Source: Proteromonas lacertae (lineage: Eukaryota). Taken from it: a DNA stretch of 53,507 bases. The notes under the pieces were generated by a model. The model did not search any database. It was not told the DNA's origin and saw only the letters and a list, made by a program, of their open reading frames with translations. Location of the stretch: NCBI GenBank assembly GCA_002245135.1, contig NGBS01001181.1, positions 62,001-115,507 of the forward strand, in the 5' to 3' direction. A program made the translations under genes and the position numbers. Shown piece by piece: positions 3,396 through 43,002 of the stretch (positions within the stretch are counted from its first letter, which is position 1; every line of letters starts with the position of its first letter).

Positions 3396-4488
3396 ATGGT
3401 ATGTAATATACTATTTAATAGTTGCAATAGTCTAAGAAACCAATTGTGATCAATACAAACGAATTTCCAGAGTTTATTCAAAATACACTTGATGAAAAAT
3501 ATAAAGTATGATGATATTTCATAAAATGTGAAATAGATAATATTAGTGAGAGATGTTTTAAATAATAAGGTGGATAATGATGAATATAAACAAGCAAAAG
3601 TATTGATTGTTAATGAATATGGTAATTTACCAATGCCATTGAATGACGAATTCTTTTCGTTGTTTCCAAATATAAAAGTGTTAGTCACATACTCAATTGG
3701 CTATGATTATTTAGATTTATCCTATTTACATAGTAAAGGAATAACAGTAGGAAGAGCGTTTGATACAGAAGATACAGTAGCAGATCATACAATAGCATTG
3801 TTATTGGCAGGAGCCAGATTATTATTAGAGGGAGATAAAGAAGTAAGAAATCCAGAGACTAAATATTTCAATATAATGGAGTATGTTTATAATACAATGG
3901 AAGTCCATAATAAAACAGTTGGTTTGGTTGGATTTGGAGCTATTGGACAGAAAATTGCTAAGCGTTGTTATTGTGGATTTGATATGAATGTATTGTATTA
4001 TTGTAGACATAGAAGAAGCGAAGAAATAGAAAAATTATATAACTGCAGATATTGTGAAAAATTGGATGATTTATTAAAAGAAAGTGATTATGTAATATTG
4101 ATATGTATAACATATATAAATGCATTGTTGTATATTATAATTGTAAATAGTACCATCTAACAAAGAATCTTATCACATAATAGGTGAAAGAGAATTGAAT
4201 ATAATGAAGAAGAGTTCAATGTTAATAAATGTAGCTCGAGGAGCAGTTCTTGATCAAACTGCATTATATAATGCTTTAAAATCTAAAAGAATTCAATATG
4301 CAGCTTTGGATGTATTTGATCCAGAACCATTACCATCTGATCATCCACTAAAAACACTTGATAATATAGTATTCTCTCCTCACACAGGCGGTTCAGGGAA
4401 AGAAGCTTACATTCGTCAAGTTCAATCAATGATGTCAAACATTGATAGTTATTTAGAGTCAGGTGTAGTTGCAAAAGAAGCTAAATAG
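3396..4488 (+). CDS. D-isomer-specific 2-hydroxyacid dehydrogenase (glyoxylate/hydroxypyruvate reductase-like), copy 1
   Basis: Rossmann motif VGLVGFGAIG plus INVARG, ALDVFDPEPLP and SPHTGG (catalytic R/E/H). The first coding exon is ATG only (3396-3398), followed by short GT-AG introns; stop TAG at 4486-4488. Confidence 0.92.
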
Positions 4489-5496
4489 TTTTTTTGTTTT
4501 TAACATCCAAGCTTAGGTTTGTGTCTTTTCATTCTTTTTCATTTTTTTTCTTTCTTTGTCAATGGTATTTTAGTATTTTTTAAATTAAATAGTCAAATAA
4601 ACCATATATACTTGCTACTCATGAACCTTTTGAAATTATGAGAAGTGTATTTGAAGAAAAATACAATGTATCTTTAATACAAACATATTTTAGATGATAT
4701 ATGTATCAGATGTGTCTAATGGCAAAGTTGATAAACAGATAATTGAAATAATAAAAGTTTTACTCATTATGTCTATTAAAAACTGTCCAAAACTTGATGA
4801 TGTTTTTTTTAAATCATTTCCAAGTATAAAATGTGTTGTGGCTATTATGATTGGATATGATTGTATTGATGTTGAGTATAAAATATCAAATTGTTATTGT
4901 TATAGTGATCTTCATAAAAGGGGTATAGTTGTAGGAAGAGGTTTTGGAACATACAACACTGTAGCTGATCATACAATGGCAATGCTTCTTGCATCAGCTA
5001 GAATGATAATTCAAGGTGATAAAGAATGTCATACAACTACTCAACCAAAATATGATTGGATGAGATATGTAAATAACGCAATGCAAGTATCAGGTTCAAC
5101 AGTTGGATTGGTTGGATTTGGTGAAATAGGACAAGCTATTGCCAAGAGATGTAATGGCTTTGATATGAATGTATTGTATTATTGTAGACATAGAAGAAGT
5201 GAAGAAATAGAAAAATTATATAACTGCAAATATTGTGAAAAATTGGATGATTTATTAAAAGAAAGTGATTATGTAATATTGATATGTATAACATATATAA
5301 ATGCATTGTTGTATATTATAATTGTAAATAGTACCATCTAACAAAGAATCTTATCACATAATAGGTGAAAGAGAATTGAATATAATGAAGAAGAGTTCAA
5401 TGTTAATAAATGTAGCTCGAGGAGCAGTTCTTGATCAAACTGCATTATATAATGCTTTAAAATCTAAAAGAATTCAATATGCAGCTTTGGATGTAT
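3978..5496 (+). repeat. 338-bp near-identical direct repeat (3978-4315 vs 5159-5496) inside the two dehydrogenase genes
   Basis: Direct comparison shows about 2 substitutions across 338 bp, including an identical intron; the flanks are strongly diverged. Confidence 0.9.
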
Positions 5497-5669
5497 ATGA
5501 AAAGGAACCTTTGCCTTTAGATGATCCACTTTTAGCATTAGATAATGTTTTAACCTCACCACATAATGGTGGTTCCAGCAAAGACGCGTTTTTAGTATTA
5601 GCAAATAATGCTGTAAGAAATATTGACTCATATTTAGAAAGTGGAATTGTTGTTAAAGAGGCTGAATAG
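4562..5669 (+). CDS. D-isomer-specific 2-hydroxyacid dehydrogenase, copy 2 (tandem paralogue)
   Basis: ATG|intron|SNKPYILATHEPF..., then VGLVGFGEIG, INVARG, ALDVYEKEPLP and SPHNGG. Shares intron positions with copy 1, plus an extra 30-nt intron near 4876. Confidence 0.92.
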
Positions 5670-5793: not shown

Positions 5794-7765
5794 ATGAATG
5801 ATATATTTGCATGTGGTATTGACTTAGGTACAATCAATTGCAGAATTGCATCTTTTAAAAATGGAGAGCCAGTTGTTCAGCAGTATAGTAGAGAATGTAA
5901 AGCATTTCAATCTTTAGTGTGTTTTAAATCTAATGAAGAAGTATTTGTAGGAGCTAGAGCGAGGAATATTATGTTTAAACATTTATATACATCGATCTAC
6001 GATATAAAGCGATTGATAGGTAAAAGGATAGATGATCCAGGAGTTCAAGAAGATAAAAATCATCTTCCATTTAAAATTAGTGGAAATGAAGATGAAAATG
6101 TTATTATTCATATTACCATAAATGGTAAAACAATTAAATACTCACCTGAGAAATTATCTTCATTAGTATTGAAATATGTGAGTGAAAAAGTTGGTAGTTA
6201 CAGTCAACTAAACGAAGAACAGATAATACATGCTGTGATAGCTGTTCCTGCTTGTTTTACAGATAGTCAAAGAAGAGCAACAATAGAAGCAGCAAGATTA
6301 GCTGGTATAAATGTATTAAGATTAATAAATGAACCAACTGCAGCTGCTATTACATATGCATATAAAAGTGTAAGAGATAAAAACGGAAAGAATAATATAA
6401 GAAAGAATATAATGGTCTATGATTTTGGAGGTGGTACTTTTGATGTATCCATTATCTCAATAGTTAATAATGTTATAACAGTAAAAGCAACAGGAGGAGA
6501 TAGTCATTTAGGAGGTGAAGATATTACTAATAATTTAGTAAAATACTTACTTAACGTGATACAAGATGAAAGTGGAGTTGATCTTTCAAATAATAATAAA
6601 ATAAAATATAGACTAAAAACAGCATGTGAAGAAGGAAAAGAGATATTGAGTGAAATGACTGAAACAGATATAGTATGTGGTTTAGTAAAAGGTGAAGAAT
6701 TATTTTATACAGTTAAGCGATCTGAATTAGTAGAAATTAATGTAGATATATTCAATAAAACTATGAGAATTGTAAAAGACACAATAAAGAATGCATATTT
6801 GTCAAAAGAGTTAATTGATGAAATTGTGTTAGTGGGAGGAAGTTCCAGAATACCTGAAGTAGAAAGACTATTAGAAAGTGAATTTCCTGGAATAGTAATT
6901 AATAAAGGAATAAATTCAGATGAAGCAGTTTCAATTGGCGCATCAATATTAGCAGATGATATTTGTAGAAGAGTTAAAGAGAAGTGTTTTGACAATGGTT
7001 CGCTTTCATTAGTTGATGAAAATAATAATTTGATAAGTGTTATTAATGATATTCCTCCTCCTCCTCCTTCAACAGATAGTCCATATTTTTTACCTAGTTC
7101 ACAGACTAAAAGTCCAGATAAATCATCTCCTCTTTCTAACACTGCTATTAATGGAGAAATACATAAACCAGATAAAAATCCTAAAAATCCACCGTCATCT
7201 CCAACAAATCCAACAAATCCATCTCCAGACAATCCATATCCAGACAATCCACAACCAATAGTAATGAATAGCAGTTTAATAACATCTAAATCAATTGAAT
7301 CTATATCAGTTATTCATCCTAATATAAGGTACAGTATGTATGAGAAGGATGAAAAATCATATAATTTTGTAGTAAATGATGTTCTAACACATAATATAGG
7401 TATTATAACACTGAATGAAGAAGGTAATGATATTAATGATATTGTAATTCCAAAACATACTATAATACCTTATGAATTAATATCAGGTAGTTATTCAACT
7501 GTAGAAGATGATCAAACTGAAATTAGTTTTAGTTATTGTGAATGTGATAGTGATGATGTAAATGACTGTATAAGAATAAAAACAATATACATTAAAGATA
7601 TTCCAAAGATGAAACGAGGAGAGATGAAATTTATTCATCGAATTAATATAGATAGGAATGGATTAATAACTATAACTATAACTATAAAAAGTAGAAATGA
7701 TGTTAATCAAAATTTAGTTACAACTATGTAAATTATTATTTATCTCTTTTAATTATAGTATTTAG
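5794..7765 (+). CDS. Atypical HSP70-family protein (NBD + Pro/Ser-rich insertion + SBD-beta, lid missing)
   Basis: Motifs GIDLGT, LRLINEPTAAA, VYDFGGGTFDVSII, GGDSHLGGED, IVLVGGSSRIP and NSDEAVSIGA; linker FVVNDVLTHNIGI and SBD-like YSTVEDDQTEI. The 3' end depends on splicing of a donor at 7728. Confidence 0.85.
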
Positions 7766-17813: not shown

Positions 17814-20800
17814 ATGCCATACAAAAATTTCAATGAGAGAAATGTAAAGATAAGAAATAGAAGTATATTTGAATATAATATAGTCATATCAATAGGACAG
17901 GATGATAATTATGATTATTATAATAGAAGATCACCTTCAAGAACAAAAAACAATTTAAGAGAGGATAGAATATCTTTTATTTATTTTTAAATGATAATTA
18001 ATTTTCTTTAATATAATAATCAAGAAGTAAAGAAAGAAATTATCAAACTATCATTCAACCTACTCCAAGTTTCAATCGTTTCAAATCAAAAGATGAACCA
18101 ATTATTCTTTATAAGCATAAATCACAGACTGATGTAGTTAAGCCACCAATTCAACTTAAATCAAGAGAATTGGATGATAAACCATTGATATTAAATTTTC
18201 CATATGTTAGAATTAAAGATTTTATTTCACCTTATATAAAATATTTTCCTAAATTAGCTGACCATCCATGGCAATTTATTCAAAAAATACCAAAAATCAG
18301 TTTGGAGTAGATGGTATAATTCAACTTTAATGCCAGAAGGAAAACAACAGTTAATGTATATATATATATATATATAACATATATAGTACATATAATAATA
18401 ATAATATATTTACAATTGGATTAAGTTATTTATGTAAATCCAATTTACTTCATATATCATTATATCATGAAGTCAAAAGTAAGATGTTAGATTTTTATGT
18501 AGAAGATGAAAAAAGTGAATATTATTGTATGATATATGAACATCAAAAGGATTATCAAATTCCTGATAAAAAAGTAGATGTAACTAAAATTTCTGAAGTA
18601 AAATCACAGTTTTCATCTTACTTACAGTCATGTCTAGATTGTATAATTGTCTATTTTGATATTAATCCAAAAATATTAAGTTTATTTGGTATTTTAGATT
18701 TACCAAATGTACATTTAAGAGACATATCATATTTTCCACCAATTTGTTATAAGCATTTTGTTTTACATACTTCAACTATATTAGATGCGTTTTTCAATTC
18801 ACAGTATAGAGAGATATTAACATTTACAGATTCAGAATTAAGTTCTGATAATTCAATTGATATATTAAATAGAAGTTTAAAAAAAGCTGAACTGAATTAT
18901 AATAGAATAGTGGCTAATATTGCGTATATATATATTTAATCTTTCTATATTTATGTTAATTAAGTAGTGATTATTATGTTGTTACTTTAATAATGAAAGT
19001 TACTAGTAAATATTCTTTAATTGGTCAAGGATTGGATAGAAATGAATTTACTGCTTTGAACATTGCTGCTGAGGATTTAATAAGAAATGTTTTTGGTAAA
19101 ACTGAAGTGTTTTTGAAAAGAGAAACTGTAAATAACATGAATAAAAAAGGTATAATATATATTAGGATATGTATTAATATTATAAAAATAAAAATAGTAT
19201 TATTTGAGCCATTATTGACAATAACAGACCATAATTTAATGTTTTATATATATTTATCATACAAAGTGATATGGGAACAGTATTTAGGTTTTTTTACTTC
19301 ACCAAATACACAACAATATAACACAAATACAAATTCTAACAGCAATAGTAATAATACTTCTAGTAACAGTAATAATGAGAGATATAATCCTTATAATTCA
19401 AGTTTTTATAAACCACATGAGTATGAATATACGTCATTAACAAATAGATGTTTTGAAAATGATGCTAATACTATTCAAATTCAATCAATTCAACAAACAC
19501 CACCTAAACCATCACTTTATTCACATTCAAATTCACCTTATAGTGAAGTGTATTATATATATTTAAGTTGATATTGTTATTTAATATATTTATAGCCAAG
19601 CAATATACGGTGGCTATTCTTTAAGTCAACAGAAAGAATATGTTTCACCAAGTTTCATAAATACAATACAAACTCCACCAGTAGAAATACCAATTCAACA
19701 ACAGATACAACCACAGCAAACAATACAGACAATTATGCCAATAAAATCAATACAACAAATGCAACAACCTATTCAGCAACAAGTACAACCTATACAATCA
19801 CCAACTTCTCAATTTAAATTAGTATTTATATTGATAATATAACACAAATAGAACAAATTAATGCTGGCTATTAATTTTGATTCATTTCTTTCAGAAATAG
19901 TTATTAATCCCAACCCTGATATAACTAATATAGCCAATTATCTTATTATTGCTGATCCACAATTGATATATCAATTGAATTATTTAAATGGCCATAATGG
20001 TTTTATAAAATACAGATCTGATTTGATTTCAATTCTTTTCTACACTGTCATCTTTTTATGATTTTATAATTTTCACTGAACATGATCCAAATTTTGTTAT
20101 TCCTTTAGTTAGTGTGTTCGATCCTACACAGTATATGCATATATATTCTAATTTATTTCAATAGTTCTTTTTTCCATAATACAGTTTTACAAGTCACACC
20201 AACATCTAAATCATTTGAATCTATTGTGTCGTTTTTGACTAATAGTTATGGAAATGAATATATAGGATGTAATATCAATATATTATCTCAAAATTTGGTA
20301 TTATAGTGTTTATATATTTGTTTATTATAGATTATTCTTGATGATAGAATAGATTTATGGAAATATAGTAATGATATTAATATTCAACCATTTTGTGAGT
20401 TTAGTATTATATCAATCAGAGTATTGCATTTCTTTAACAAAATCAAAGACTTAGAAATAGTATATAATATATATATATAATAATCTATAGCCACAATCTA
20501 GAAAAATGTATGTTGATAGAGATAAACATTATATTCAAAGTGTTTCTGATGCTTTGATTTTAGTATTTTTTATTAATGTAATTTATACTTTATTATAGTG
20601 TGCAAATGATACTTATATTACAAAAGATATTGTTTCTGAGTTTATTATTGATAATAAATGTGATATAAGAGTATCTATACAAAGAACTAGGTTGAAAGTA
20701 TTGAAAGGATGTGTAATTTTCTTTGGTAATGTATATTTCGTTATATATAAATGTTGTTAGATATTTTCACCTACTGAAGACTGTACATTAAATCCTTTAT

Positions 20801-20994
20801 GGATAGATGCAGAGCATTTTGGAGCAAAATGTGTAAAGACTCTATCTCAAGAGGTAACTCACATTGTTTCAAATCCAAAGTATGATGCATCTTCATATAA
20901 GAGATTGAATACATTCTTAGTTACTCTAGACTGGTTAGAAATGTCAATTTGGAAATGGTCAAGAGAACCAGAAAAAAAGTATTTAGTGTTATAA
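17814..20994 (+). CDS. Composite protein: RS-like N-terminus, degenerate REX4-like exonuclease, dsRBD-like domain, Q/P-rich linker, degenerate FCP1-type CTD phosphatase, BRCT
   Basis: FCP1-like motifs KLMLAINFDSFL, FIKYRS, YDFIIFT...VFDP and IILDDRIDLW. BRCT: VLKGCVIFF...AEHFGAKC...VTHIV...VTLDWLEMSIWKWSREPE. dsRBD-like: LIGQGLDRNEFTALNIAAEDLI. The model needs an AT-AA intron (17970-18019) and a 1-nt frameshift at about 20036. Confidence 0.65.
17970..18019 (+). other. Putative U12-type AT-AA intron (50 nt)
   Basis: Starts ATATCTTTTA, contains an in-frame TAA, has TTCTTTAAT at 18004-18012 and ends ATAA. There is no GT or GC between 17896 and 18026. Removal gives in-frame REDR|SRSKER. Confidence 0.65.
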
Positions 20995-24100: not shown

Positions 24101-27100
24101 CAAGGAGAGTAGAAGATACTCCAGATGATAAGAAAGAAGGAGGAGAAGAGAAAAAAGAAGATAATAAAGAAAATGAAGAAGAAAAGAAAGAAGGTGAAAC
24201 AAATAAAGAGAATGAAGAAAAAGAGGAAGATATTGGAGAATTAAAACCATTAGCATTAAACACTGTTCCACCTCCACAAGATGTTCCTTCACCAAAGAGG
24301 AGAAGTGTGTTAAAATCATCAAGAAGAAGATCATTTTTACCAACTAAACCATTGGCTAATGAAGATGAAAATAAGAAGTCATCATTTTTGAAACAAGATA
24401 ATGAGAAAGCTAATGACAATATTTCTCCACCAGAGAATGAATTAGATAGAAAGTTTGATGAAGGTTTAAGAAAACAGAATTTATTGATTGGTTTACATCC
24501 CGATGATTTATTCAAATTAGGTGAAACAAATGATGAAAAGAGATATAAACAATTATTAAATCAACCATTTTTAACAACTACACAATTATTACATAGATTG
24601 AAAATGATGTGTAATAGTGTAACAAGACTAAAAGCACATGAATTTTTATTAGAATTACCATCTAAACAATTGATACTTAGAAAAATAAAAGGTTTTGAAA
24701 CAACAGAACAGTTGTCACAATATATAAATGAACATTTTGGATTCAATGAAAAGACAAGTGATGAATTAGCATTATGCTTATATGGAATGTATAAGAATGA
24801 TTTTTACACTGGAATAATCAATAACAGAATCAATCAAATAGCAAAAAGCAGAGAAGAATTATTATACCAAATGAAAGCTAATCAAGTGAAGGATTTATAC
24901 AACATTATTCAAGTAGATGATCAACAACAACAAAATGCATTATCTATTGAAGGAGGAGGTATTTCAGAAAAAGAAATAAAATTCAGAGAAAGAAAGATAG
25001 AAGATGAGCAAAGAACTGCAATTAATGATATACAAAACACAATTACTACTACACAAGATCATATGTCATTATCCATAAGTAGATTACACAATTTAGAATG
25101 TAAAGTAGAACAAATGAAGAAAAGATTACAGCTATTACAAGCCTATCATGAAGAACAAGCTGAAATAAGAAATAAAACAAAAGATGAAAAGAAGGATGAT
25201 AGATATTTCCAACAGAGTATGAAAGATTTTGTTAGAAATCCCAATTCATCAGATAGAATAGAATGGACTCAAAGATTATACACAGCAATAGATTTAGCTG
25301 AAGATAATGATGAACAATCAATGAAGAAATATCAAGAAATACAAGGAGTTATTGAAGATTTTATTACATGTGCAGTTACTTATGGTGAAATTATCATAAG
25401 AGAAATGTCAGTTCCAGATTCAGAGAAAACAATAAAACCAATTGCAACTAGAAAATGTGATTGGGAAGGAAATGTAAAACCATTCTATGAAGTTGCCAAT
25501 ATAAGATACAAATTTGCATTTGATTATGATGGAATGTTTAATGGCTCTGATGAAAATGCAGCAAAATATATGAGACAAGGAGTGAAAGGGAATCAACAAA
25601 TATTCAAATGTAGAATATCAGGAATAAGATTACCATTACAATTAAATATTGATTATTTAGGATTTAGATTAGAAGCAACAAGTGTTATTCCAATTGAAGG
25701 TATTCCAACAGGATCATTGTCTGAAAGAATTATTCATTCTGAGCTATTGATTGGTACAAAAGACAGAGGTAATAAAATAGTATTAGGAGATCAATTTTTA
25801 GCAGGTAAATTATTCTCTGTAGCAAAGAAATTGAATTTGAAAGATCATATAGTCAAAGGCATTCATGATTTGACAATCAAACATATTCCATTATCAGCTG
25901 ATTTAGAAGGTTATAAAGGAATTGACAATGAATATTATTTGTTAAATTTCAATAGATTATTACCACCAGAAGATCCATATGAAACACCTCATTTACCATT
26001 ACAACCAAGAGGTGTTAGTATATTTTGGAGATTTTTAAGACCTGAGTTAGTTTGTGTATATTCATATTCATATTATTAATTATTAATTATTATTTGTATA
26101 GGATTATTCAAAACCATTATCATCTGATAGTTTATCTGGTTTTTCACATGATGCTCCAGATACTGAAGAGAATAATGAAGTAACTAGTGAATTGACAAGA
26201 AAATTAATCAAAGAAATTATTCCACAGTTTGCTAATGAATTATGCCATAAAGGACAAGATATATATGAATTAGATTGGACTCATGAATTCCATAGAAGAG
26301 GTATTAGTATGAGACACTTAGGATTCTTAAGAAAACAATTCTGGAGACAATTAGATGGAACTGTAACTCCTTCATTTAAAAGTACACAATTCAAAACAAC
26401 TTGTGATTTGACTTTAGAATTAGAACCAGGTGAAAAAGTATATATATATATATGTAATCATTATTACTTATTTCTATTTATAGATAAAAGTAAATGGCCA
26501 TATCTATACAATATCTGATGCTGCAAATAGTGTGTTTACTTCTGATATGATTACTGTTAATGAACATATTGATAGTGCAAATTCATTTAATCAAAAGATT
26601 TATGCAGGTGAAGTAGAAGATGACAGTAACTCTGAAGAAGTAAGAATTGTATTGTTAGTTGAAATGATTATAAGAACAGTGAAACAATTAATTCGTCATT
26701 ATACAAGGGAATTATGTTTACATTTAGGAAATCCAAATGTAGATGCAGCAAAGGATACTTTAGTTTATATATTGAATTTAATTACAGGAAGTGGTGAAGG
26801 AAGTGAAGAATGGTGGGAAAATGAAGTAACTCTAGCATTAGATTCAAAATATGGACCAGGATCATTAACTGTAAAAGAATCAATCAATATCACTAAAATA
26901 ATTGAGCCATATTTGACTAATATTATATTATCATTATTAGACAGTCTTGGATTTACAATTACTAGAACATGTGAAGAATCATTGGAAGAAAATCCAAAGA
27001 ATTTTGTATTTTCTGTTGTTGATATTGATAGTTGTTTACCAGTAGTATATCACAGTATTCATTTATTAGAATATGCACAAGGTAAGTTATTAGTAAAAAT

Positions 27101-30100
27101 GGCAGAGAAGAAGAAGACTACTTCTTATTCAGATGTTGTATTATCAGATCATCCATTCGGTTATTGGAAATTAGATGATTTAGCTGGTTCAAAGTTTGCA
27201 CATAATGTTGGTCCAACAGGAACACAATTGATGGGTAATATAACACAAGGAGTAGCTAAGCAAATACCTTGTACATTGTGTAATATATCCCAACAGAATA
27301 ATGTTGCATTTGGTTTTAGCGCCGCTAATAAGACAAGAATTGATTATAGATATAATGATAATTTAAATCCTTTGAATAATAATACATGTTTCAGTTTGGA
27401 ATGTTGGGCTAAAGTGAAAGGAGGTGAAAATACTAAAAGAGTTATATTATGTACTGGTAGATATTGTTTATATGCTTCAAAAAATGATACTTGGTGTTGT
27501 AATTTAACTTCTGCTGTTCATTTAACTACAATCACATTAACTGGTCCAACAATCATTTATAATGAATGGACTCATCTATTCTTTACATATGATGGAACAA
27601 TGGCTAAATTGTATGTGAATAGTGTATTAGTAACATCAGTATATTCTGATGAATTATTCAAAAAAGCAGTTGTTGATCAAGAATATAAATTGAAGAAAAG
27701 GTTTCAAGCTATTGATTTAGAAGAAGAAAAAGAAGCAAAACATGAAATTGATGAAGCAAGAGAAATAGAAGGACAAAGACTAGATCAACCATCCAGTAAG
27801 AAAGAATTAGAAACAATAGCAAAGAAATTAATAGAAAAGAGAAATATAGAAAGAAAAAGAATGAAGGAAAGAAATGCAACTCAATCTAAAGTAGGAAGAT
27901 CATTGACAGAACAAACTACAAAGAAAGCAGCAGAAATAACAGAATCAGCTCCAGATCATGTGAATCAAGTAACAATGCAAAGTGAGATAGATGAAGATAA
28001 ACCAACAATATTAGAATCAATAGATGTAGCAAATCCAAAAGATAAATTACCACCCCAACTATTGATGGGTGAAGCATTGAGATTAGCAAAAGAACAGTTA
28101 TTAACAGAATTAGAAACATCTATTAAAGCAAGAGTTCATGAAAAATATGAAAAAATGAAACAAGAAGAGGTGAAATCACAAGAGAATATGAAACAAAAAG
28201 CAATTGAAAAGTTAAAAATTCCATTTTGCATTGGTGCTCAAACTCCCTCAAAGAATGAGACAGAAGGAAGTGACTTTTTCGAAGGTGAATTATGTCATGT
28301 TGCTGTATATACAGATACAATTGATAGAACACATATTAAACATCATTCTATATTGGGAACTAAAGATAATTCAACAGAAATAGGAAGATTCTACAAGTTA
28401 GCTAGTGATAGATTCAAATTAGCTTTGAGAAAAGTTCCAAATGACAAATTAATTCTTGATGATTATGCTAAAGCATTATGTGCTCATTACAGTTTAGATT
28501 CAACAAGATATGAAGATCAAAGTGAATATAAAGCAGATGTAATGAAAGCAATTCATTTCTTCTATGATACACACATTGAAGATGGTATTGCTGCTTTATT
28601 AGATGGTTTACCTGCTGATCCATTATACTGTGATGTTGTCTATGAAGGTTATTTCTTATTAATGAAATTGAATTCACATTATTATGATGATTCAGTCGAA
28701 AGATTAGGAAAATTACCTGAAAAGTTTATGTTATTATCTGATGGAATTGATCCAAAATACAGTGAAGTAGGTGCAAGTATGATTCAAAATGTAGTCTGTA
28801 TTAATCCAACTTATTATGGTAGAAATACTAGTTTAGATTGGGTTAATAGTTTAACTACTCCTCGATTAGTTACACATATTATTCATACTGTGATACAAGG
28901 AATGAGTTTAAGAGATTTAGAATTACCAAATATGTCTGATATTTCTGTTCATGAGATTGATATATTGAGTAATAACTTACATGGAATTGAACATCTTAAT
29001 TTATCAGGTTGTAATGGTGTTTCTGAAGAATCTGTTGCTTTCTTAGCGAAAAGGTGTCAAAAATTAGAATCGTTGGTTTTGAATAATTGTCCACTTATGA
29101 ATGATATTTGTGTTCAGTATATTGCTAATCTTCACAATTTGAGGAATTTGAGTCTTGAAAAGTGTAGTTTAGTAACTGATGAAGGTGTTATTCCTGTTGT
29201 ACAAAGTTGTCAATTTTTGGAAGAATTGAATTTGAACAATATGAGAAGTATAACTGATCTTACATTAGATGCAATTGGAAAGAATTGTTCTATGTTAAAA
29301 ACATTAAAAATTGAAGTATATTTATATATATATATTATATTATATTATAGTGGTCAATACAAATCACAGATAATGGTTTATTGAATATGATTAATACAAT
29401 AATACCAAGTTATATGAATATAATAGATCTATCAGGCTGTAGCAGAGTCACAGATGAAACAATAATATCATTATCAAAGACATTTACAAACCTTCAAGTA
29501 TTGAATATTAGTCATTGTAATTCTGTTACTGATAATGGTACAGTTTATATTTCTCATAAACTATGGCATATTACACACTTGAATCTTGCTGAGTTGAATA
29601 GTATTACAGATACATCATTCTTTTATAATCCATTAATTGATGATAGACCATTATCAAAAGAGAATTTCTTTGCAAGTTTATTAATATTAGATGTAACAGA
29701 TTGTCATCAACTAACAGATGATACAATACATGGAATATCTGAAAGATGTAATCAATTAAAAACATTGATATTATCAGGATGTAGAAGATTAACTAGTAAA
29801 TCAATTGAATATTTATGTGCTAATGAAATATTACATGAAACTCTTACTTATTTAGATATTTCTTATTGTCTTAATTTTGATGATGAAGATATTGAATTGT
29901 TAGTTAATAGTTTTGTACAATTACAAAAGTTGAATTTGACTGGTTTAGGAAAAATAACAGACAAATCAGTAGAAGTTATTTCTGACAAGTTATATACAAT
30001 TGATAGTTTATATTTAGGTCATTGTCGTTTATTAACCGATCAAGCATTATTTAATTTGTCTAATAAATCATGGATTGAATTGTTAGATTTAAGTTATTGT

Positions 30101-30479
30101 AGAAGAATTACAGATATTGGTTTAAATGCAATAAGTGAAGCTCATTCTGGCTTAAGAGTATTAAATGTTGCTTATTGTGCTAAATTAACTGAACAGTGCA
30201 TTAACAGATTATTCCATAAGTGTGAACATTTGATGTCTTTGGATGTATCTTCGTGTCCACAAATATCTGAACAATTTTGTCAATTGTTGAAACAAATGAG
30301 AGTTGGAGTATATTTTATTATTGTTTATATATTATATATAGTTTATAATTACATATAATACTGGATTGAGAAGTGAAGTACAACTATCAAGAGATGAAAA
30401 GTTGGAAAGTGTTCCAGATGTTCCAAACACAGAATCTCTTTCTAATTTAGATATTGCTAATCTTCAAACAACTCAATAA
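21176..30479 (+). CDS. Giant (about 3000 aa) multidomain protein: MGxxxS N-terminus, coiled coils, IQ motif, Clu domain, LamG-like domain, AMN1/FBXL-type LRRs
   Basis: Spliced start MGTSQSNLSG; IQ AIKIQACYRGFLGKK; Clu-like PLQLNIDYLGFRL...DLEGYKGIDNEYYLLNFNRLLPPE...LRPEL and EFHRRGISMRHLG. LamG-like FSLECWAK...NEWTHLFFTYDGTMAKLYVN, then many LxxLxLxxCxxLTD repeats. Seven short GT-AG introns; stop TAA at 30477-30479. Confidence 0.8.
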
Positions 30480-33426
30480 ATTAGTTATTTCATTTTAGTT
30501 TGTGTGTTTTTAATTTATTGAAAAAATGACTGTTTTGTTTCTTTCAAGTTTTGGGCTTGAGAGTTAGATTTTTGTTTTTTTCTAAATTTACACAATAGCA
30601 AATTATATTCTAGTCTCGCATATAATATAAGTTATCAAAAAATGAATAAATCAAAACAAAGTATGGTTAATATTTATTTGTCATTTAGCTTATCATTATG
30701 GAGTAGATTTTGGAGGAAGGAATTGTGTAATATCAGAGTATAATGGAATTAATTGTCAGATAAAAGAAAATGCATATAGTGAGAGATTAACATTGTATTT
30801 TTACAGTTGTTATTTATAGTGTTGGATTAGTTACAGATGGAATAAAACTCTATTATGGAAGAGCTGCCAAAACAAATGTATATATATGTTTGATATTTTT
30901 AGTTAATTCGCTTATATAACAATTCAGCTTGTGAATTGAAAGAATATCTTGGTAAATACATTGTTGATGGTTTGAATATCCAAACTGAGAATTATAAATT
31001 CTATCCAAGTGAAGTAAAAATAGATAAAAATGGTTTATGTTTTAAAGTATTTTTTCTTCTTTATTTATCTATTTATTTAGTTGCCTAAATTGAAATTTAA
31101 TGATTTAAACTGTAGTGATGGATATTTTGCATGTGATACATTATTTGTATTGTTAATGAAATATTTGAAAGAAACAATGATGAAAGAAGGAAATGAAGTA
31201 ATAATATGTCATCCATGTTATTACAATGAAAAACAAATCGAATATATAAATGAATTATATAAAGTATGTGAAATGAAAGTTCTAAAGAATATTCCTGAAT
31301 ATTTAAGTGCGAGTTTATGTTTTGGATATGAAAACAACAATAAATTGAATGAAAATGAAGAGAGAATTGTTTTATTATTAGATATGGGTTATATAAACTG
31401 TAGTAGTACAATAGTAAAATACAAGAAAGATGAATGTGAGATATTAAGTCACAGTTATAACAATGATAAGATTGGAGGTCGATATATCGATAATTTATTA
31501 GTAAATGCTTTGATTGGAAAAATGGGTATGAATATAGATAATATAAGTGAAAAATTATATGTGAAAGTGAAAGAAGAGATAATAAAGATGAAAGAGAAGT
31601 TAAGTGCAAGTGGAGCTGATACAATTCATATAAGTATTGATGATGGTGATAATGATTATGAAAGTGATTACAGTGTAAATGAATTAAATGAAATATTGAA
31701 AAATAATGGAATAAATACCAAAGTGATTGATATAATAAAAGACAGTATTGTAAACAGTGGTTTAATAGAAGAAGAAGATAATAAGAAATTAGAGATAGTG
31801 ATAATAGGAGGAAGTTTAAGAATTCCTTTAATTCAAAAAGAGATAGAAAATTATGTAAAGAGTGAGTTAGATAATGATATAAATTTAAATCGAACAATAA
31901 ACATGGATGAATGTATGAGTTTAGGTAATAGTTATTATGGATTAATTCAAAGTGGAAAATGGAGATATTCATATAATGAAAAGAAAATAATAATCCATCA
32001 AATAGAATCTTCTTCCAGATTAAATAATGACAAATGTAATAACACATGGAATGTAAAAGAACGAATTAGTAAAATATATGATACAATCAAAAGAATATGT
32101 AAAAATGAATCAATAGTTCAAAAATGTGCTTCATTAAGAAATGAAATAGAAGGAGAATGGTATATATAAAGATAATCATATTATTATTATTATTATTATT
32201 ATTAGTTATTATCTACAACATTTATTAGAAGATAATACAATTATAAATACAGATGAGAATAAGAATGAAATAAGTGAAGTATTAAAGAGAGTAAAATCAA
32301 AGAAATTAGTTGATAATAACAATTATGATGAAATTGAAGATTTGTATAAGAGAATACTGATAAAAAAGCTAAACTTAATAAGTGAAGTATTTAGAAACAA
32401 GTACAAAAAAGAGAGTAAAGTATCTGCATATTTAAAAGACATCAATAGAGAGAATAAAATGAAGAATATATATATTGAAAAGATTAAAGAAAAATTAAGT
32501 ATTGTTGAAGATGAGATGAGAAAGTATGAATTAATATTTTTCTTTTGTAGTATGAATATTTTAAGAGGAAGACATAAAACGGGTGGATATAATTCTACTC
32601 CATCACCTTCTAATTCAAATAACCCTGTTCCAATTCCTGTTTTAGATAACAATATTATTTTGAATAAAAGAAAAAATAGTTCTCCAGTGAAAAATATTGA
32701 TCCACCGTATAATATTCTATTTATTGTTGTTATTTGATTTAGACCACTCCCAATGCCTCAACATCATCAAGAAGAGATTGATAATTTGATTAAAGAATTA
32801 GAATCTTGTATAAACCAATTTCCTGAATATCCAAACATCAGAATGATTAAAAAACAAATTGAAAAGATAAAAGCATTACCTTTATCATCAATTGAATATA
32901 ATACTCAATTCGACAAACTTTCTTCAAGATTGGAGAATTTTAAAGTATAATTTGTTATTTTTAATAATGATAGATATATATCAGTGATTATAACAACCAA
33001 AGAAATGATTGTATAAAAAGAATAACAGAAATGATATGTGGAGATGGTAATAAGAACAGACTGAATTCTGATGATATGAATCGAATAATAAGACTAATAA
33101 ATGATGAAAATTATCATTCATTACAAGAATATAAAGATATAATTAGTCAATTAACAATTCACAAAAATAGTAGAAATATGATAAATGAATCACCACCAAA
33201 ATCTTCAAATAGAGATAATAATATAGAAGAAGGAATTAATAAAGTATTGAAGCAATTAGATGATTATATGAAGAAAAATCCATATTCTCCTAAAATGAAA
33301 GAAATAAAAAGAAAAATGGAAGAAGCAAATAAACAAAACAATCCAGTTGTTAGATTTGCTCAACTTCAACAAATATTGAATGATTTAGAAGAAAATGATA
33401 ACTCCTACAAAAATAACGATAAAAAT
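25802..33426 (+). repeat. Left arm of large inverted repeat (>=7.6 kb)
   Basis: Reverse complement of 45896-53507. Mirror ORF pairs sum to 79322 (31081/48241, 29384/49938). Confidence 0.97.
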
Positions 33427-36288
33427 AACCAAAACATACAAATTAATCTATCTGCTTCAACAATTATAAAAACTAATAGAAAAGAAGAAACACCAATAAA
33501 TGATTTAAGTCCATTCTTATTTTTCAATGTCAAAATCAACAAAGAAGAAGATGGATTTGGAAAAAAGAATGTATAAGTAGATATTTATGATTAATAGAGA
33601 TGATTTATTGATTGAGATAAGAAAAGATAATTCAACACAATCAAAAGATATTTTGATTGGTTATTTAAATGAATTGAAAATAAAACTTTCAAAGGAATTC
33701 TCATATTACAACAGAAGAGTTGGATAGTTATGAAAAGGAGATAGATGATAGATTAAAAGAATATAGAATCAAATCTAGAAGAAAGAATACATCACCACCA
33801 GTATTAACCAACCAAAATATACCTAATGTAGAATCAATAGAAATAATGAAGTATATATATTAGTATTATTAATTCTATTTGTAGTAATAAAGCAAAAAGC
33901 AGAATACTAAATAGAAAAGTTTCTCTTCAGCCGAATAATCAACAACAATATTCTTCAAATGTAAGAATATCACATAGTTATTCTGAAATACAATCTTTAA
34001 TAAGTAAATTAGAAATGTATGTGAATAATTATCCATTTTATCCTTATGTCGGATTAGTAAGGGAATTAATCAACCGAATTAAAATAGTCCCATTAAATGA
34101 GAATGAGTATGATAATCAATATAAGAAATTATTAAAGAGAATAGTGAGATATGAAGTATAATATTTTGTTTATTATTATTGATAGAAATTTATTGAGGAT
34201 TATGATTTAAAACAGAAAGAAAAGATAGATAAGCTAAAAGAATTATTGATGAAATTTAAAGAAATTGCAGATAAACAAACAATACAGTTATTATACAGAG
34301 ATATGATACAAAAAGCTGAAGAGATGATGATATATGGAATTAAAAAATATCCAATAAATGAATATGAAAATATCATAAGTGAAATGACTATCTCAGCTAA
34401 CAATATGAAAAGAAAACCAGAATTGACTGAATATCAAATTCATTCAATAAACAAAATAATACATTATCTCAAAGTATGTGTAAAAGAATATCCTCATTAT
34501 CCTAAAGTGAATAACCTTAATAATCTGCTGATAGAAATTGATGCTACTACCATGAATATTGACAATTACAACAAATTTATTGATATATTGGATAGATGTA
34601 GAAATGATATAGATAATTATGTGAGTGATTATCAAAATAAAAAAACAGAATTGACAAATAATATCAAATCTATATTGTACAAAATTGATGAAAATAAATA
34701 CAGAATCTATCCAGTTTTAAATAAAATTAAGACAATAATTAACTCCAATTCAAATTTATATCCTTTACAGGAATATGAACAAATGAATAACGATGTAATT
34801 AAGATTTATAAAGAGATAAATGAAAATCAATTAAAACAAAAAGAGATGAAAAAGCAATTAATAGACATTATTACAGATCATTTGTATTATTTGTATTTAT
34901 TTATTTAAATGTTATAGAAAGAAGATTAGTCTATATTTCAACAGTTATTATGTATTAAAACAACAAGTAGTAATTCCAAGAAATTTGTTAGATAATAAAA
35001 ATAACCTCTTATCTGATTGGCAGTTAAAAGATGATGAGATAAATGAATTAGAAAAGAAAAAACAGTCTTGTGAAGGTGTGTTAATTCAAATCTCACAATT
35101 TGTCAATAGAAACAATGATTTAGAAAGAAGATTGTATATATATTATGTATAATTGCAATAGTAAAATAATTGAAAATGAATTAAGTAAGAATAGAGATTT
35201 ATTTAATGTAATAAAAATTCCTCAAATGTTGTTAATTACTAACACAATCTTCAACCTTTTTTCAAATATAATAAATAGATATAAATTATGTGATATAGAA
35301 AAAGCTGTTGTTGATGTTGAGAATCAAATTCATTTTTATAAGCATAAAAACGAATCTTCAATCAAAAGAGCTAGTCCAAATGAAGAACTAATTCGAAAGT
35401 TGAAAGATACACATAAAATTGAAAAACAACTCAATGTATTTTAAATCATTTATCTGCTACAATAGAAAATAAAATTAGAATTAAAATATGAAGTTGAAAT
35501 TAATGAGTGTATTAAAAAATTGGAGGAATATATGAAACAATATACTTATTTTAATGGTATATCATCTATAAAAATACATATTGATCAAGCTAAAAGATGT
35601 AAATCTCATGAAATGTTATTGGCTCTACAAAATGATATAAAGGATTATGAAGTATTTTTACAATATATATATATTTCAATAGAAATACATTATATTTTTA
35701 AAAAGCGAAGAAGAAAGAAAACTAAATGATTTAGAAAGAAGATTGTATATATATATATATATTATGTTTAATTGTAATAGAAAAATTATTTTTAATGAAT
35801 TTAGTAAGAATGATGGTTTATTTAAAGCAATTAGAATTCCTAAAATATTAATTTATGTAGATGGAAGTTTAAAAAGTATTAATTATATAAGGAGATATGA
35901 AAATCTCAATAATATTGAAAAAGCAATTATGGATGTTGAAAAACAGATTCAGTATTACAAAAATAATAGAGAATCAGAAAAATACCAATACAACAGAAAT
36001 AAATTACCAAATAATACAAGAGAAAATAATAGATACTGTAATTATAATGTGAATAATGAAATATTATTGAAGAAAGAATTGAATGAAAAGTTGAATTATA
36101 TTAACCAATACTTTAGAGAAAATAAATATTTATTCGATATATTTTATGTTCCAAAGTACTTGATATTCACAGGGTGTATTTTATGGAGTGATATAGATTA
36201 TATAATGAGAATAAACAAAATTAACCTAAATATAGTCAAAAATGATATTGAAATACTCGAATGGAAAATAAATAATTTGAAAAGGTGA
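30642..36288 (+). CDS. Divergent HSP110/HSP70-NBD protein A with long helical-repeat tail
   Basis: MNKSKQ|TYHYGVDFGGRNCVIS, LLLDMGY, IGGRYID, KEKLSA, IVIIGGSLRIP and RTINMDECMSLG; many short introns. Two apparent 1-nt frameshifts (about 33520 and 33687). Confidence 0.7.
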
Positions 36289-37885
36289 ATAATAATTATA
36301 AATCTAGGTTGGATGTTATATATGTTTTTATATAAAAAAATATATTCGTTTCATTATTTCCCTCCATTTCTTTTTTCTATTGCTATATACTTTATTTAAT
36401 TATTAAAACTAGATTTTCATGACAAATGCCTATTGATCATTACGGTGTAGACGTGGGAGGAAGAAAAATCACCCTCTCTACATATAATGGTATAAACTGT
36501 AAGATAGTGGAGAATACATATAGTGAAAAATATTCAGTGTATTTTTAATATATTAATTTTAGTGTTTGTATTGTATGGGACAATAGGTCCTTTAAATTTG
36601 GTAAAGCTGCTTTTTCTGTTGTATATTAACTATTTTTATATTTAAGTATACTAGAAATTGTAAAAAATCAGCAAAAGAGTTAAAAGAATACATAGGAAGA
36701 TATATTCCCAGTCATATTGAATTATTAGAGGATGAATGGATATACAAACCTTCACATGTTGAAATTCAAAATAATGCATTATGTTATGAAGTATATCTAA
36801 TGTTATATCGAAATAGATGTCATGTATCTTTAAGGATTTAAACTGTAGTGATGGATATTTTGCATGTGATACATTATTTGTATTGTTAATGAAATATTTG
36901 AAAGAAACAATGATGAAAGAAGGAAATGAAGTAATAATATGTCATCCATGTTATTACAATGAAAAACAAATCGAATATATAAATGAATTATATAAAGTAT
37001 GTGAAATGAAAGTTTTAAAGAATATTCCTGAATATTTAAGTGCGAGTTTATGTTTTGGATATGAAAACAACAATAAATTGAATGAAAATGAAGAGAGAAT
37101 TGTTTTATTATTAGATATGGGTTATATAAACTGTAGTAGTACAATAGTAAAATACAAGAAAGATGAATGTGAGATATTAAGTCACAGTTATAACAATGAT
37201 AAGATTGGAGGTCGATATATCGATAATTTATTAGTAAATGCTTTGATTGGAAAAATGGGTATGAATATAGATAATATAAGTGAAAAATTATATGTGAAAG
37301 TGAAAGAAGAGATAATAAAGATGAAAGAGAAGTTAAGTGCAAGTGGAGCTGATACAATTCATATAAGTATTGATGATGGTGATAATGATTATGAAAGTGA
37401 TTACAGTGTAAATGAATTAAATGAAATATTGAAAAATAATGGAATAAATACCAAAGTGATTGATATAATAAAAGACAGTATTGTAAATAGTGGTTTAATA
37501 GAAGAAGAAGATAATAAGAAATTAGAGATAGTGATAATAGGAGGAAGTTTAAGAATTCCTTTAATTCAAAAAGAGATAGAAAATTATGTAAAGAGTGAGT
37601 TAGATAATGATATAAATTTAAATCGAACAATAAACATGGATGAATGTATGAGTTTAGGTAATAGTTATTATGGATTAATTCAAAGTGGAAAATGGAGATA
37701 TTCATATAATGAAAAGAAAATAATAATCCATCAAATAGAATCTTCTTCCAGATTAAATAATGACAAATGTAATAACACATGGAATGTAAAAGAACGAATT
37801 AGTAAAATATATGATACAATCAAAAGAATATGTAAAAATGAATCAATAGTTCAAAAATGTGCTTCATTAAGAAATGAAATAGAAG
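31102..37885 (+). repeat. 1051-bp near-identical direct repeat (31102-32152 vs 36835-37885); a third, inverted copy lies at about 47170-48220
   Basis: Identical protein translation over about 350 aa; the adjacent exons are clearly diverged. Confidence 0.95.
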
Positions 37886-40800
37886 CAGTAATGTATTAAT
37901 AAATTATATATTCATATAGTTATGATAATAGAAGAGAAATAGAATCAGAATTAGAAAGTGATGAAAAAAGGGAATATGAAACATATTTGAATGATGCTTT
38001 AGTGTGGGTGAAATCAAAAGAAGTTATTGATAAAAATGATGTGAATGAATTGGAGAATAGATTAAAAACTCTTAAAAATAGTAAATATCCTCAAATTATA
38101 GTTGAAGATGATAAAAAGGAAGAGGATGATGAAGTTAGTTACTTAATGAATATACTTTTAGATTATATGGAACAATATCCTCATTATTATCAATGTAATG
38201 TTATATCAGCACAAATAGAGAGTATAGCAAACCATGAAATGGATATTGAGTCATCAAAAGATAAGTTAAAGAAGTATATTACAAAATATGAAGTATAATA
38301 ATCGTTATTTTATTGTACTAGAAATATATTGATAATTATTTGTCTTCAAGAAATGATATAATGAAGAATATATCTCAAGAATTGTATATTGTAAAGTTTA
38401 TATTCTTTTTATAATAGAAATGATCTATTTAGAAAGATGTATGTTACAGTTCAGAATCCTGATAATCATATGAAAATAATTCATAATACAACTTCATTAT
38501 TGAAAGATGAATCTACAAAAAGACCACTTTCTGATTATAGTAATTTAAAAAGTGAATTGGCTGTTTTAAAGAATCAATTGAAGTATATATATTTTGGAAT
38601 ATATATGTTATTATAGACCAAGTAAGTTGTTGGAAGATATACAGAATAATGTAGATTTAGAAAGCAAAAGTGATTATGCTATACAGATTAAAGAATTGTT
38701 GAATAAATCATTTGATGAATCTAAATTAAGTGTAAGGTATAATAAATTGAAGATATTATATGGTAAATATATGGAAAGTGTGTTAAGTGATTTAAAGAAT
38801 GAGTTGAATAAGAAATACAATGATATTAACGAATTATTGAATAATAATAAGAATATACAAATAACAGAAGACGAACAATCAATAGTTGATGAATATATAA
38901 AACTAAAGAATAATGAATCAATAAAGAATATAGCTACTATGAAAGTAATAAATAATCAATTAGAAACAATTATTAGTGAATTAAATATTAGACTAGAAAA
39001 AGAAAAGAATGAAATTGAAAAGATAAAAGCCAAAATTGAACATTTGAAAGATTTAATGAGACATTATTCTGACAATCCTAAAAATGTTGAAATTAAATCG
39101 TATATAGAATCAATAGAATCCAAATCAATACCAATATCAGATTCAATAATCGTAATATCAAAATTAGAAATATATAATAATAAAATTAAAAGCTATATAA
39201 ATGAAATAGAAGTTAAAAAATCGAAGATGAAAAATGAAATAGATGATTTATATAATGAGTATAAGAGTTTGTGTAATAAAAATGAAGATATAATAAACAA
39301 AGAAATGATAAAAGTAATCGAAGAGTTAAAATCTTCAATAAAAGATTATTCATTAAATGAATATGAAGACATGAAATGTCGATTAGAAAAAGAAATCGAA
39401 CAAATAAAAGAGAAACAAAAACTGGAAAAAGAAAAAGAGGATAAATTGAAAGAACAGTTATTAAAAGAAGTGTATAGTATTGAAAATCTATTAAATTATA
39501 GGGAAATATGTCATACGCTTGAAAAGGAAGATAGAATGAAATATTTTCCGAAGTTGGAAGAGATTGAGAAAGAAATAAATGATGATAATTATAATATCAA
39601 ACATAGTATTCAAGCATTTGAAGAATGGATTAAAGTATTAAGAAATAATAAGAAAAACTATAAAGAAACTGAAATAGAAGTTAATAAAATAAATGAAGAG
39701 GAAAATGATAAAACCAATGAAAGTGAAGAAGATAAAAGTGTAGAAGTAAAAGACAAAGAAAATGAAGTAGAAATGTATATGGATAAAGAAAAAGAATTGG
39801 AAAATAAGACAGATCTAGTTATATTAGAAAATGAAAAAGGGAAAGAATTAGAAGAAAAATATGGGAAAGAATACAATAAAAAGGAAGAGTATATTGAAGT
39901 ACCAATTAAAATAGAAGAAATAATCAAAGTTGAGAATAATGTTAATATAGGTGATAAAGAGATGGTAGAAGTAGAGACAAAAGAAGCATTATCTAGAATT
40001 GATAAACAGAACAGTACTTATAAAGAAGAAGAATTAGATAAAGATGAAATTAACAAAGATGAAATCCTAGATGAAAGAGAAATAGATGATGATAATGAGG
40101 AGGAATTGAATGATAGTGACAGTGTAGAAAAACTAGTAAAAAATGAAGAAGATAAAGATGATGAGGAAGTTTTATCATCATCAGAGGAAGAAATAGATAA
40201 TGAAAAAGAAGAAATAGATGATGAAGGAATAAATAAAGTAATAAAAAGAGATGATGATGTAATGAAGTTGAGTGATGATGATGTTATTGATGATTTTGAA
40301 AATAATGAAAGTGATAGTTATTCTAGCAGTAATAGTAGTAATAGTAGTAGTGAAAAATCTGAAGAAGATGAAGATATTGATGATGATACAGACAATGCAG
40401 AAGTTGAATCTACTATCCACTCATCTGTCTCTTTAGTTTCAGATATTAAATATCACTCATTAAATGATGGATCTATTTCTTTTTCAATACCAAAAGTTGG
40501 TATTAACAATAACAGTAAGGAATCAAGTCAATTAAATAGTGTAGATTTATCTATACAAAACTATGATAATTCAAATACAACAACTGAATTTTCTACAACT
40601 ACATTTTCTTATTCAGATGACAAAATTCAAAACAATACTAGAAAAGATAATTTGTCTTTTCAGATTGCTTTTGAAATAAATTTGAAAAGCTATAATGAGA
40701 GTTATATAAATAGAAATGAAGCAAAAATTAATTATTTATATACAATTCCAGAAATTAAAAAAACATCTAGAGAAATACACAAATCAAGATATGATTATTC

Positions 40801-41448
40801 TCCATTACATACTTTTACTCCTGTAAAATATAATGCAAACAACATTCAAAACAATGAAGATATGAGTAGATATTCTACTCCAAGATTATATAAGCGCTGT
40901 GATGAAGAATATTTATACATTAATCATCCAGCCAATTCAACCTCTTCATCAAGTAGTGTTTGTTCTGATAGTTATTCATATGATTCAGCATGTCCTTTGT
41001 ATAATAATTATGATATGAGTAATTCAACTACATACTCATATTATACTCCATCCTCATCTTCTACTTCATCTTATAGTAGTTCATTGAATAGTAAACCATA
41101 TTATTATCATACTGACAAATATAATTCTACAAATTCAAACTTTATTAAACCAAAGAATATTTATAAAAGAAAAGTTTATGATGATTTACCTAAACATGAA
41201 TCCAATCCAAAAATAAAGTGTGAACCTCCATATAGAAGAATATCTGACATAAAAGAATCTTCAACAACAATAAAAGTAGATAATTTCAAACATAAATGGC
41301 TAAGTACCGATAATACTCTCAGAAAAAAACTAAATTATTTTGCATCATACAAATATGATATTGTATATACATTTTTATATCTTTCTCTATTTATAATAGG
41401 TTTATTTAATGTATAAGGATTTTAAAAAAGAAAATAGTAAATATTAAT
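36426..41448 (+). CDS. Divergent HSP110/HSP70-NBD protein B with coiled-coil, acidic and Ser/Tyr-rich tail
   Basis: MPIDHYGVDVGGRKIT start and the same NBD exon as gene A. Lid-like YETYLNDALVWVKS; short introns link it to the 940-aa ORF. The 3' end depends on a probable intron at 41363-41399. Confidence 0.7.
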
Positions 41449-41561: not shown

Positions 41562-43002
41562 ATGAAAAAGAGAATTATTCAGCCTACAGAGTACATATTC
41601 ATATATTACATACGGTTTAGGTTTTATGATCATTCTGAGATAATAATTAAACCATGTCCTGTTAGTATTGCTAAACCTTGTAGTAGATATTCGCCAACAT
41701 TCTACCCTTTACAGTCTCAAGCATTTGAAGAATATGATAGGAGAGAAAATGAAAATATAAAAGTATTATGGATAGCAATTATTCATTTAGGTGTTTTCTA
41801 GAGAAAATAGCGAGAATGGGAAAAGAGAGTTTTTTGTTGCTAATGAAGAAGAGTTTTGGAAATTTTACGATAATGAAGATATCTTTTTTAAATAGATTAA
41901 GTAATTCTTTAACTTATATAAATCCAATAGAAAGGCATTATTACGAGATAATAAAGGAGAATACACCTTGCAGACTATATTTTGATTTAGAAGTATTATA
42001 TATGTTTCTATATTACTTTAATAGTATGAAAAAGAGTTTAATGAAAGTGTAGATGAGAATAAACTATTAAATGATTTCTATTATTCAGTAAGCTCTGCAC
42101 TATTTTCTTTATTTGACATATATATAAATCCAAATAATTTTGTTCCATTATGTTCATCAAGAAAAGAAAAATTCAGTTATCATTTTGTTATTCATATGAA
42201 TGAAAAAATACTATTTAAATCAAATGTAGAAATAAAATCATTTATAGAAGAACTCTATAATAATTATTCACTACCATCTCTATGGGTAAATGGTAAAGAT
42301 GGTGATAATAGTGTTTATGTAATTGATAAAAATGTATATACAAAGAATAGAGCTTTTAGATTGTATTTGTCATCAAAGTATAATAAGAAACAAATACTAA
42401 CAACTCCTCCAAATATGGTTAATCCTTTGATATTATCATCAGAAGAAAGATTATCATTTTTCAAAAAGACATTAATTACAGATTTTTGGGATAAAGAAGA
42501 ATTAAAATCATTTAAATTATTGGATTATAAACATCATTTAGAATATAAAAATCCAATAATTGATAATAGAATTAATAGTGTTAATATATCTAATGATAGT
42601 AATTCTAATACAATTATCAATAATAATAATTTAATTTTTCAACCTCTAATCGATTATATATTAAACACTTTTCGTAATGGTGAAGCAAAACAATGTGATT
42701 CATATATTAGGAATTGGGTTTGTACTTATACTGAAAAGATATGTTTTATTGTACTGAATATTGAGAAGTACAGATGGTGTGGTAATATCAATAGATGGCA
42801 TAAATCTAATCATATATACTTTGTTGTGGATGTCAGTTATGGATGTTATTATCAGAAGTGTTATGATGTTGATTGCTCGAATTATAAATCAGAAGCAATT
42901 CCATTAACTCAAGATATTCTTAAATTGACAATTAATAGTCTACGAAAGTATTTTTGTGAGAATAAAATAGAAATTCCTTTAAATATTCAGAATATTACTT
43001 AG
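41562..43002 (+). CDS. PRIMPOL: DNA-directed primase/polymerase PrimPol (AEP family with UL52-type Zn finger)
   Basis: RHYYEIIKENTPCRLYFDLE (motif I DxE), KFSYH (motif II), VIDKNVYTKNRAFRLYLSSK (motif III) and Zn finger RWCGNINRWHKSN...YQKCYDVDC. Four introns, one of them AT-AA. Confidence 0.93.
41879..41921 (+). other. Putative U12-type AT-AA intron (43 nt) in PrimPol
   Basis: Starts ATATCTTTTTT, contains an in-frame TAG, has TTCTTTAAC at 41905-41913 and ends ATAA. Removal gives GKREFFVANEEEFWKFYDNE-D-PIERHYYEII, matching PrimPol FWxxY...H-x-YE spacing. Confidence 0.75.

Follow-up and report, generated by a model that had tools for sequence, protein, structure and literature searches.

A predicted U12-type intron with AT-AA ends in an FCP1-like gene of Proteromonas lacertae

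The reading frame that opens at ATG 17814 runs into an AT-rich stretch and stops at 17988, and the frame that lies open downstream, over 18020-18307, has no ATG. Whether and how these two frames are joined is the question raised by this locus. The first-pass annotation had proposed an AT-AA intron at 17970-18019, and its letters, coordinates and stop are as it described them: the stretch begins with ATATCTTTT, carries TTCTTTAAT 7 nt before its end and closes with ATAA. Excision joins ...REDR to SRSKER..., which gives the RS-type continuity that had been claimed. Judged from its letters, the stretch is probably a real AT-AA intron with minor-type signals, most likely of the U12 type.

The window, that is, the whole stretch of 53,507 nt that was analysed, is eukaryotic and gene-dense, with 25.6% GC, the standard code and mostly short spacers. 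Its gene density and short introns resemble those of Blastocystis. Tortoise isolates of Blastocystis, with 21-23% GC and median intergenic lengths of 645-719 nt, are a poor match. Coordinates of the predicted features are collected in Table 1.

Table 1. Predicted features of the focal locus and of the second site, in window positions.
Feature	Coordinates	Strand	Details and basis
Host gene model	17814..20994	+	13 exons, about 910 aa; gene finder with minor-type option
Predicted exon 1, ATG 17814	17814..17862	+	Frame and gene finder
Ordinary GTAT...TAG intron, 33 nt	17863..17895	+	GT-AG finder and permissive finder
Predicted exon 2, R/S/D-rich	17896..17969	+	In-frame coding score of +25 bits
Predicted U12-type intron, AT-AA ends, phase 0	17970..18019	+	50 nt, 6% GC; motifs, frame, model scores
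Minor-type 5' splice site ATATCTTTT with T at +6	17970..17978	+	Fits motif quoted in a Physarum preprint (10.1101/2020.10.12.336362)
Predicted branch site TTCTTTAAT	18004..18012	+	Candidate branch A is 18010 or 18011
Predicted 3' end AA	18018..18019	+	First in-frame stop-free end 3' of the branch site
Predicted exon 3	18020..18355	+	+55 bits over 18020-18205; one-base frame break in A runs 18282-18296
PRIMPOL intron, predicted U12-type with AT-AA ends, phase 1	41879..41921	+	43 nt; motif pair, gene finder
PRIMPOL branch site TTCTTTAAC	41905..41913	+	Second A to intron end, 9 nt

Choice of the junction

A GT-AG gene finder run on positions 1-45450 gave 78 ordinary introns of 24-79 nt with a mean GC of 16%. 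The start is GTAT in 73 of these and the end is TAG in 74, shares that lean to the seed of the self-trained finder, 13 introns chosen by eye. C makes up 5% of ordinary intron interiors in the window. A U2-type (major) intron of this form, GTAT...TAG of about 24-50 nt, was considered for the focal stretch and rejected: a letter scan of 17896-18026 finds no GT or GC, in agreement with the first-pass annotation, and a bypass takes at least 170 nt. The shortest frame-keeping GT-AG bypass is 17863-18032 (170 nt, ending in AAG), and the shortest frame-keeping GA-AG route is 17968-18032 (65 nt).

Stops are present in all three frames within 17970-18019, and a Markov coding model trained on 21 other long ORFs of the window scores the stretch at about -29 bits in every frame. 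The same model gives exon 2 and 18020-18205 positive scores (Table 1) in the two frames being joined. Frame-keeping single-intron joins were examined, 10,420 in all. When the intron starts with the AT, the earliest end that avoids a stop is 18019, and AT-AA at this position scores best, by a margin of 17 bits over a later AA, under a small model that was self-trained on the window and has hand-set priors. On these scores it is ahead of GA-AG by 28 bits, of the other frame plus a second intron by 32-37, of a short separate gene by 39, of an all-intergenic reading by 54 and of GT-AG by 75.

A gene finder restricted to GT-AG introns produces a short gene at 17814-17990 and restarts at 18330. This output is consistent with there being no intron here at all, the gene starting at ATG 18330, or a long GT-AG or GA-AG bypass being used, and the motifs having arisen by chance in AT-rich DNA. 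Exon 3 (96 aa, likely fast-evolving) has no match among 1.84 billion representatives, the 65-nt GA-AG route is in frame and GA-AG introns occur in Blastocystis ST1 at 0.16% (PMC5608401; PMC10639083), and a single strict motif pair, as defined below, arises in 12% of shuffled windows. We nonetheless consider these readings quite improbable: they leave the high-scoring, ATG-less 18020-18205 unexplained, their models are 28-75 bits worse, and the same signature stands where the frame of PRIMPOL breaks. The first-pass annotation had named two outcomes that would speak against its proposal, skipping of exon 17896-17969 through a GT(17863)-AG junction and a gene start downstream of 18020. Both are disfavoured on sequence, the former by the 75 bits and the latter by the score of 18020-18205 and its want of an ATG.

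When AA, AC, AG and AT ends were given equal weight, the gene finder read the host gene as a single unit, 17814-20994, and called 99 introns, a number that includes copies within an inverted duplication. Only two of these are of the minor type, and both end in AA. The other 97 are GT-AG introns.

The signals within the predicted AT-AA intron bear on where it ends. ATATCTTTT agrees with the extended 5' splice site motif [G/A]TATC[C/T]TTT (10.1101/2020.10.12.336362), and the branch motif stands near the 3' end, as in U12-type introns, with ATAATAA (7 nt) following TTCTTTAAT. From the second candidate branch A to the intron end is 8 nt, a short distance with no polypyrimidine tract. The ends belong to the A type, AT-AN, and the frame and the distance together point to AT-AA. 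The nearest AC after the branch site is at 18047. The closest AG, at 18023-18024, breaks the frame; it would be preferred under an 11-13 nt optimum, but it gives an immediate stop (AAG TAA), and the AG at 18026-18027 leads to a stop as well.

A real minor-type intron could have its 3' end elsewhere, at an AT (18017 or 18020), at the AA at 18031, or at the AG at 18024 combined with an adjacent one-base assembly error; we regard this as unlikely. Indel errors are plausible in this DNA, with two one-base breaks in short runs in the host gene and 21 gap positions between the copies of the duplication, and an indel could turn AA into an AT end. The frame reached by AT ends scores well over 18015-18059, and the commonest branch-to-end distance in ST1, 6 nt, corresponds here to the AT at 18017. 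The reading frame from these AT ends nevertheless closes at a stop, 18135, which only a following GTTT intron of atypical form would avoid, and this is the route that scores 32-37 bits worse. Neither at the focal nor at the PRIMPOL site does an AC or AG lie 6-11 nt from the branch A, so an indel cannot supply one there.

The motif pair and a second site in PRIMPOL

The window holds just two matches to the strict pattern ATATCYTT-N12..45-TTCYTTAAY on its two strands, one at 17970 and the other at 41879, where 300 local dinucleotide shuffles give 0.13 on average and a single shuffle reached two; this and the looser patterns were composed after both sites were already known. A looser pattern was seen 5 times with 1.1 expected. 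The loosest is not enriched (9 seen and 17 expected, both strands, shuffles), so loose motifs alone carry no signal. Among 251 scored candidate motif combinations, the same two sites are the only ones free of mismatches. Relaxed matches were dropped because the gene finder did not use them. A further candidate, GTATCTTT at 4668, is without a separate branch motif and was handled as an ordinary intron.

The first-pass annotation had described the focal intron as a second AT-AA intron independent of the first, and the interiors fit this: they resemble each other no more than fragments of ordinary introns do (P 0.07), the value against base shuffles being P 0.03. An origin as an introner, a mobile intron family, was considered and rejected: the interiors are alike at P 0.03-0.07 only, and the focal borders carry no direct repeat. 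The folding of both introns is no better than that of shuffled sequences (z -0.85 for the focal and +0.94 for the PRIMPOL intron), and hence no structure-guided splicing is proposed.

Ordinary donors of the window, GTAT, differ from the first four bases of the focal intron only at +1, and a search of the 53.5-kb window gave no Rfam match to a minor snRNA. Both observations would suit an organism that has lost its minor spliceosome and cuts AT-AA introns with the major one. We hold this to be extremely unlikely, given that the full minor-type 5' and branch motifs co-occur only at the two AT-starting sites and that all 97 ordinary introns end in AG.

The second predicted AT-AA intron interrupts a PRIMPOL gene, 41562-43002, a 79%-identical relative of which matches human PrimPol at E 6e-15. 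The exon on its 5' side reads W-K-F-Y, the WxxY motif of PrimPol, whose W and Y are reported to be essential. The motif is kept on removal of 41879-41921 and lost on all GT-AG routes. The exon on the 3' side aligns to residues 98-116 (E 0.01). With AT-AA ends, the W is followed by the motif-A Asp after 28 residues, compared with a human spacing, W87 to D114, of 27. The spacing falls to 25 residues with the AT-AG end that is in frame at 41930, which is 9 bits worse than AT-AA, 3 of these bits coming from the hand-set prior. On such sequence comparisons, a non-GT intron in PRIMPOL appears well supported, and an AA end moderately so. Neither the supplements of the minor-intron papers PMC6717393 and PMC7367187 nor the literature search yielded PRIMPOL/CCDC111.

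The 79%-identical relative (P0001) is continuous across the place of the ordinary intron 41993-42024 and starts just past the minor-intron position. Its source may be a transcript in which the minor intron was retained, or else a species that lacks the ordinary intron 41993-42024. No relative of the locus came from the metagenomes scanned with the host middle exon or the PRIMPOL alignment, and none from the viral contigs scanned with the PRIMPOL alignment.

The host gene and its frame breaks

The host protein consists, in order, of an RS-rich start, an unnamed middle domain, a possible dsRNA-binding motif (a lead only, at a fairly high score), a Q/P linker, an FCP1-like phosphatase domain and a BRCT domain. 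The R/S/D-rich start runs across the AT-AA junction. The middle domain is 60% identical over 166 aa to one unnamed protein. A NIF/HAD domain followed by BRCT is the layout of FCP1-type CTD phosphatases, and the host gene has it on weak scores (NIF E 0.0023, below the cut-off; BRCT E 1.4e-4; single-exon scores weak). Fcp1 chains are the best matches, at a weak E of 0.04. The relative P0004, folded without an alignment, gave an uninformative model (pLDDT 33) and had no usable match in the Atlas.

FCP1-type CTD phosphatases carry a catalytic DxDxT motif. It is not evident in the host phosphatase domain, where the likely position, placed by eye, reads NFDSF. Plant CPL phosphatases have either dsRNA-binding motifs or BRCT and are not known to combine them. 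The host protein may be a phosphatase that lacks activity and is unusual in its layout.

The first-pass annotation spoke of a long open exon after the intron. It is open for 96 codons and is then interrupted by a one-base frame shift. The host model requires two such shifts, one within the A runs of 18282-18296 and the other around 20026-20038, and apart from these two breaks its 910 codons hold no in-frame stop. One-base breaks in short base runs are found in the window also at 33523, 33683 and 51168-51882, and eight were picked by the permissive finder.

An inverted duplication joins 25802-33426 with 45896-53507 (7.6 kb, 99.6% identical). It carries a LamG/LRR gene and a divergent HSP70-like gene, and a third copy of the HSP70-like part, 1.1 kb long, lies at 36829-37929. 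Aligned to each other, the copies show 21 gap positions, concentrated towards the end of the window, which makes indel errors plausible at the host locus. The frame breaks near the window end fall where the duplicated copies differ, and this points to assembly errors. At the host locus, either the assembly is not error-free or the gene is decaying.

Decay would make the host a pseudogene and the intron a relic, with an AA end possibly decayed from AC. One of the two breaks falls within the phosphatase-like domain, and the want of an evident DxDxT fits the same reading. The otherwise open 910-codon model and the 60%-identical relative argue against decay, similar breaks occur elsewhere in the window, and PRIMPOL is free of breaks yet its intron also ends in AA. 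A decaying host gene is for these reasons very unlikely.

Two other groups of genes in the window were observed. A tandem pair of D-isomer 2-hydroxyacid dehydrogenase genes (3396-5669, + strand) shares a 406-nt stretch that is 95% identical, with an identical 46-nt intron inside it; the pair reflects a recent duplication or gene conversion. Several long genes with divergent HSP70 domains (5794-7765, 30642-33576 and 36426-41447 +), the first with a best database identity of about 40-45%, suggest a lineage-specific expansion.

AT-AA introns in other organisms and the meaning of the AA end

AT-AA minor introns are present in animals and plants, where they are the commonest non-canonical minor type (PMC10639083; PMC8280824; PMC1557818), with eight cases in Table 2 of PMC1557818. 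All non-canonical ends together make up about 4% of minor introns in these groups (PMC10639083; PMC8280824). Like the focal intron, animal and plant minor introns of the AT-AN type combine AT-AA ends with 5' and branch motifs of the minor type. The distances here, 8 nt in the focal and 9 nt in the PRIMPOL intron, are below the optimum of 11-13 nt given for minor introns (PMC3584512). In Physarum polycephalum, AT-AA accounts for 27% of the non-canonical minor introns, non-canonical ends for 0.8% of all introns, and the 5' motif allows T at +6 (10.1101/2020.10.12.336362). The occurrence of AT-AA and the T at +6 are shared with both introns here, whereas the Physarum branch motif has changed to TTTGA and TTAAY is retained here. 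The first-pass annotation overrates the surprise of AT-AA ends, published examples of such minor introns being available from animals, plants, Physarum and Blastocystis ST1.

The genome of Blastocystis ST1 contains 346 minor introns, along with the complete set of four minor snRNAs (PMC5608401, Gentekaki et al. 2017; PMC10639083, Larue and Roy 2023). Its minor introns are short, with a median of 39 nt compared with 43 and 50 nt here, they start with ATATC as here, and in both cases they are longer than the surrounding ordinary introns of about 30 nt. In 90 of the 339 tabulated rows of ST1 ATATC introns, counted by eye, the ends are AC in 55, AG in 31, AA in 2 and AT in 2, shares that further rows may shift (PMC5608401). 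An ATATCT start is found in 3 of the 339 rows, and one of the three is a 44-nt ATATCTTTT...AA intron much like the two here (PMC5608401). The distance from branch A to end, by eye in 30 rows, is 6 nt in 18, 7 nt in 11 and 8 nt in 1 (PMC5608401). The focal 8 nt falls within this range and the 9 nt of PRIMPOL just outside it. The short and nearly constant distance remarked on in the first-pass annotation is therefore the rule in ST1, as far as those rows go.

The end shares differ. Both predicted minor introns of the window end in AA and start with ATATCTTT, with 6-12% GC, unlike ST1. At the ST1 share of about 2%, two AA ends in two introns have a probability of 0.0005, and so AA is possibly frequent in this organism. 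Under a flat prior, the AA share has a lower 2.5% bound of 0.29, an estimate from two introns that were picked for review as odd and whose calls could both be off at the 3' end.

In the minor spliceosome, U11 and U12 recognise the 5' site and the branch site together, U6atac then replaces U11, and one of two branch A's attacks (PMC3584512). How far a candidate 3' end lies from the branch site largely decides its use, and the last intron base can therefore vary (PMC3584512). The minor spliceosome would remove 17970-18019 at its AT-AA ends, using a short, Blastocystis-like branch-to-end distance of 8-9 nt, and such a short ruler would not extend to the AG at 13 nt from the branch. Depletion of C in introns is the likely origin of the T-for-C letters of the two motifs and of the A-for-C final base, a simple cause for both given that C is so rare in ordinary intron interiors. 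G-U wobble pairing would keep the snRNA pairing despite the T-for-C letters.

As a single intron, the focal one is ordinary, being one more example of a published rare subtype, and it would imply that the minor spliceosome is kept in this protist. Recognition of such introns is of use in annotation: gene finders restricted to GT-AG split the host gene and misroute PRIMPOL. A larger claim, that AT-AA is the main minor-intron subtype in this very AT-rich protist, is tentative and in our view rather doubtful. A literature search listed no genome described as having AA as the majority minor-intron end. If the claim were true, loss of C would have moved the whole U12 class to ATATCTTT, TTCTTTAAY and AA, and the minor spliceosome would set the 3' end with a ruler of 8-9 nt, a final C or G not being required. 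An AA-majority genome would be a direct test of whether AT-AC terminal pairing is dispensable, and it would suggest that minor introns have been undercounted in AT-rich protists.
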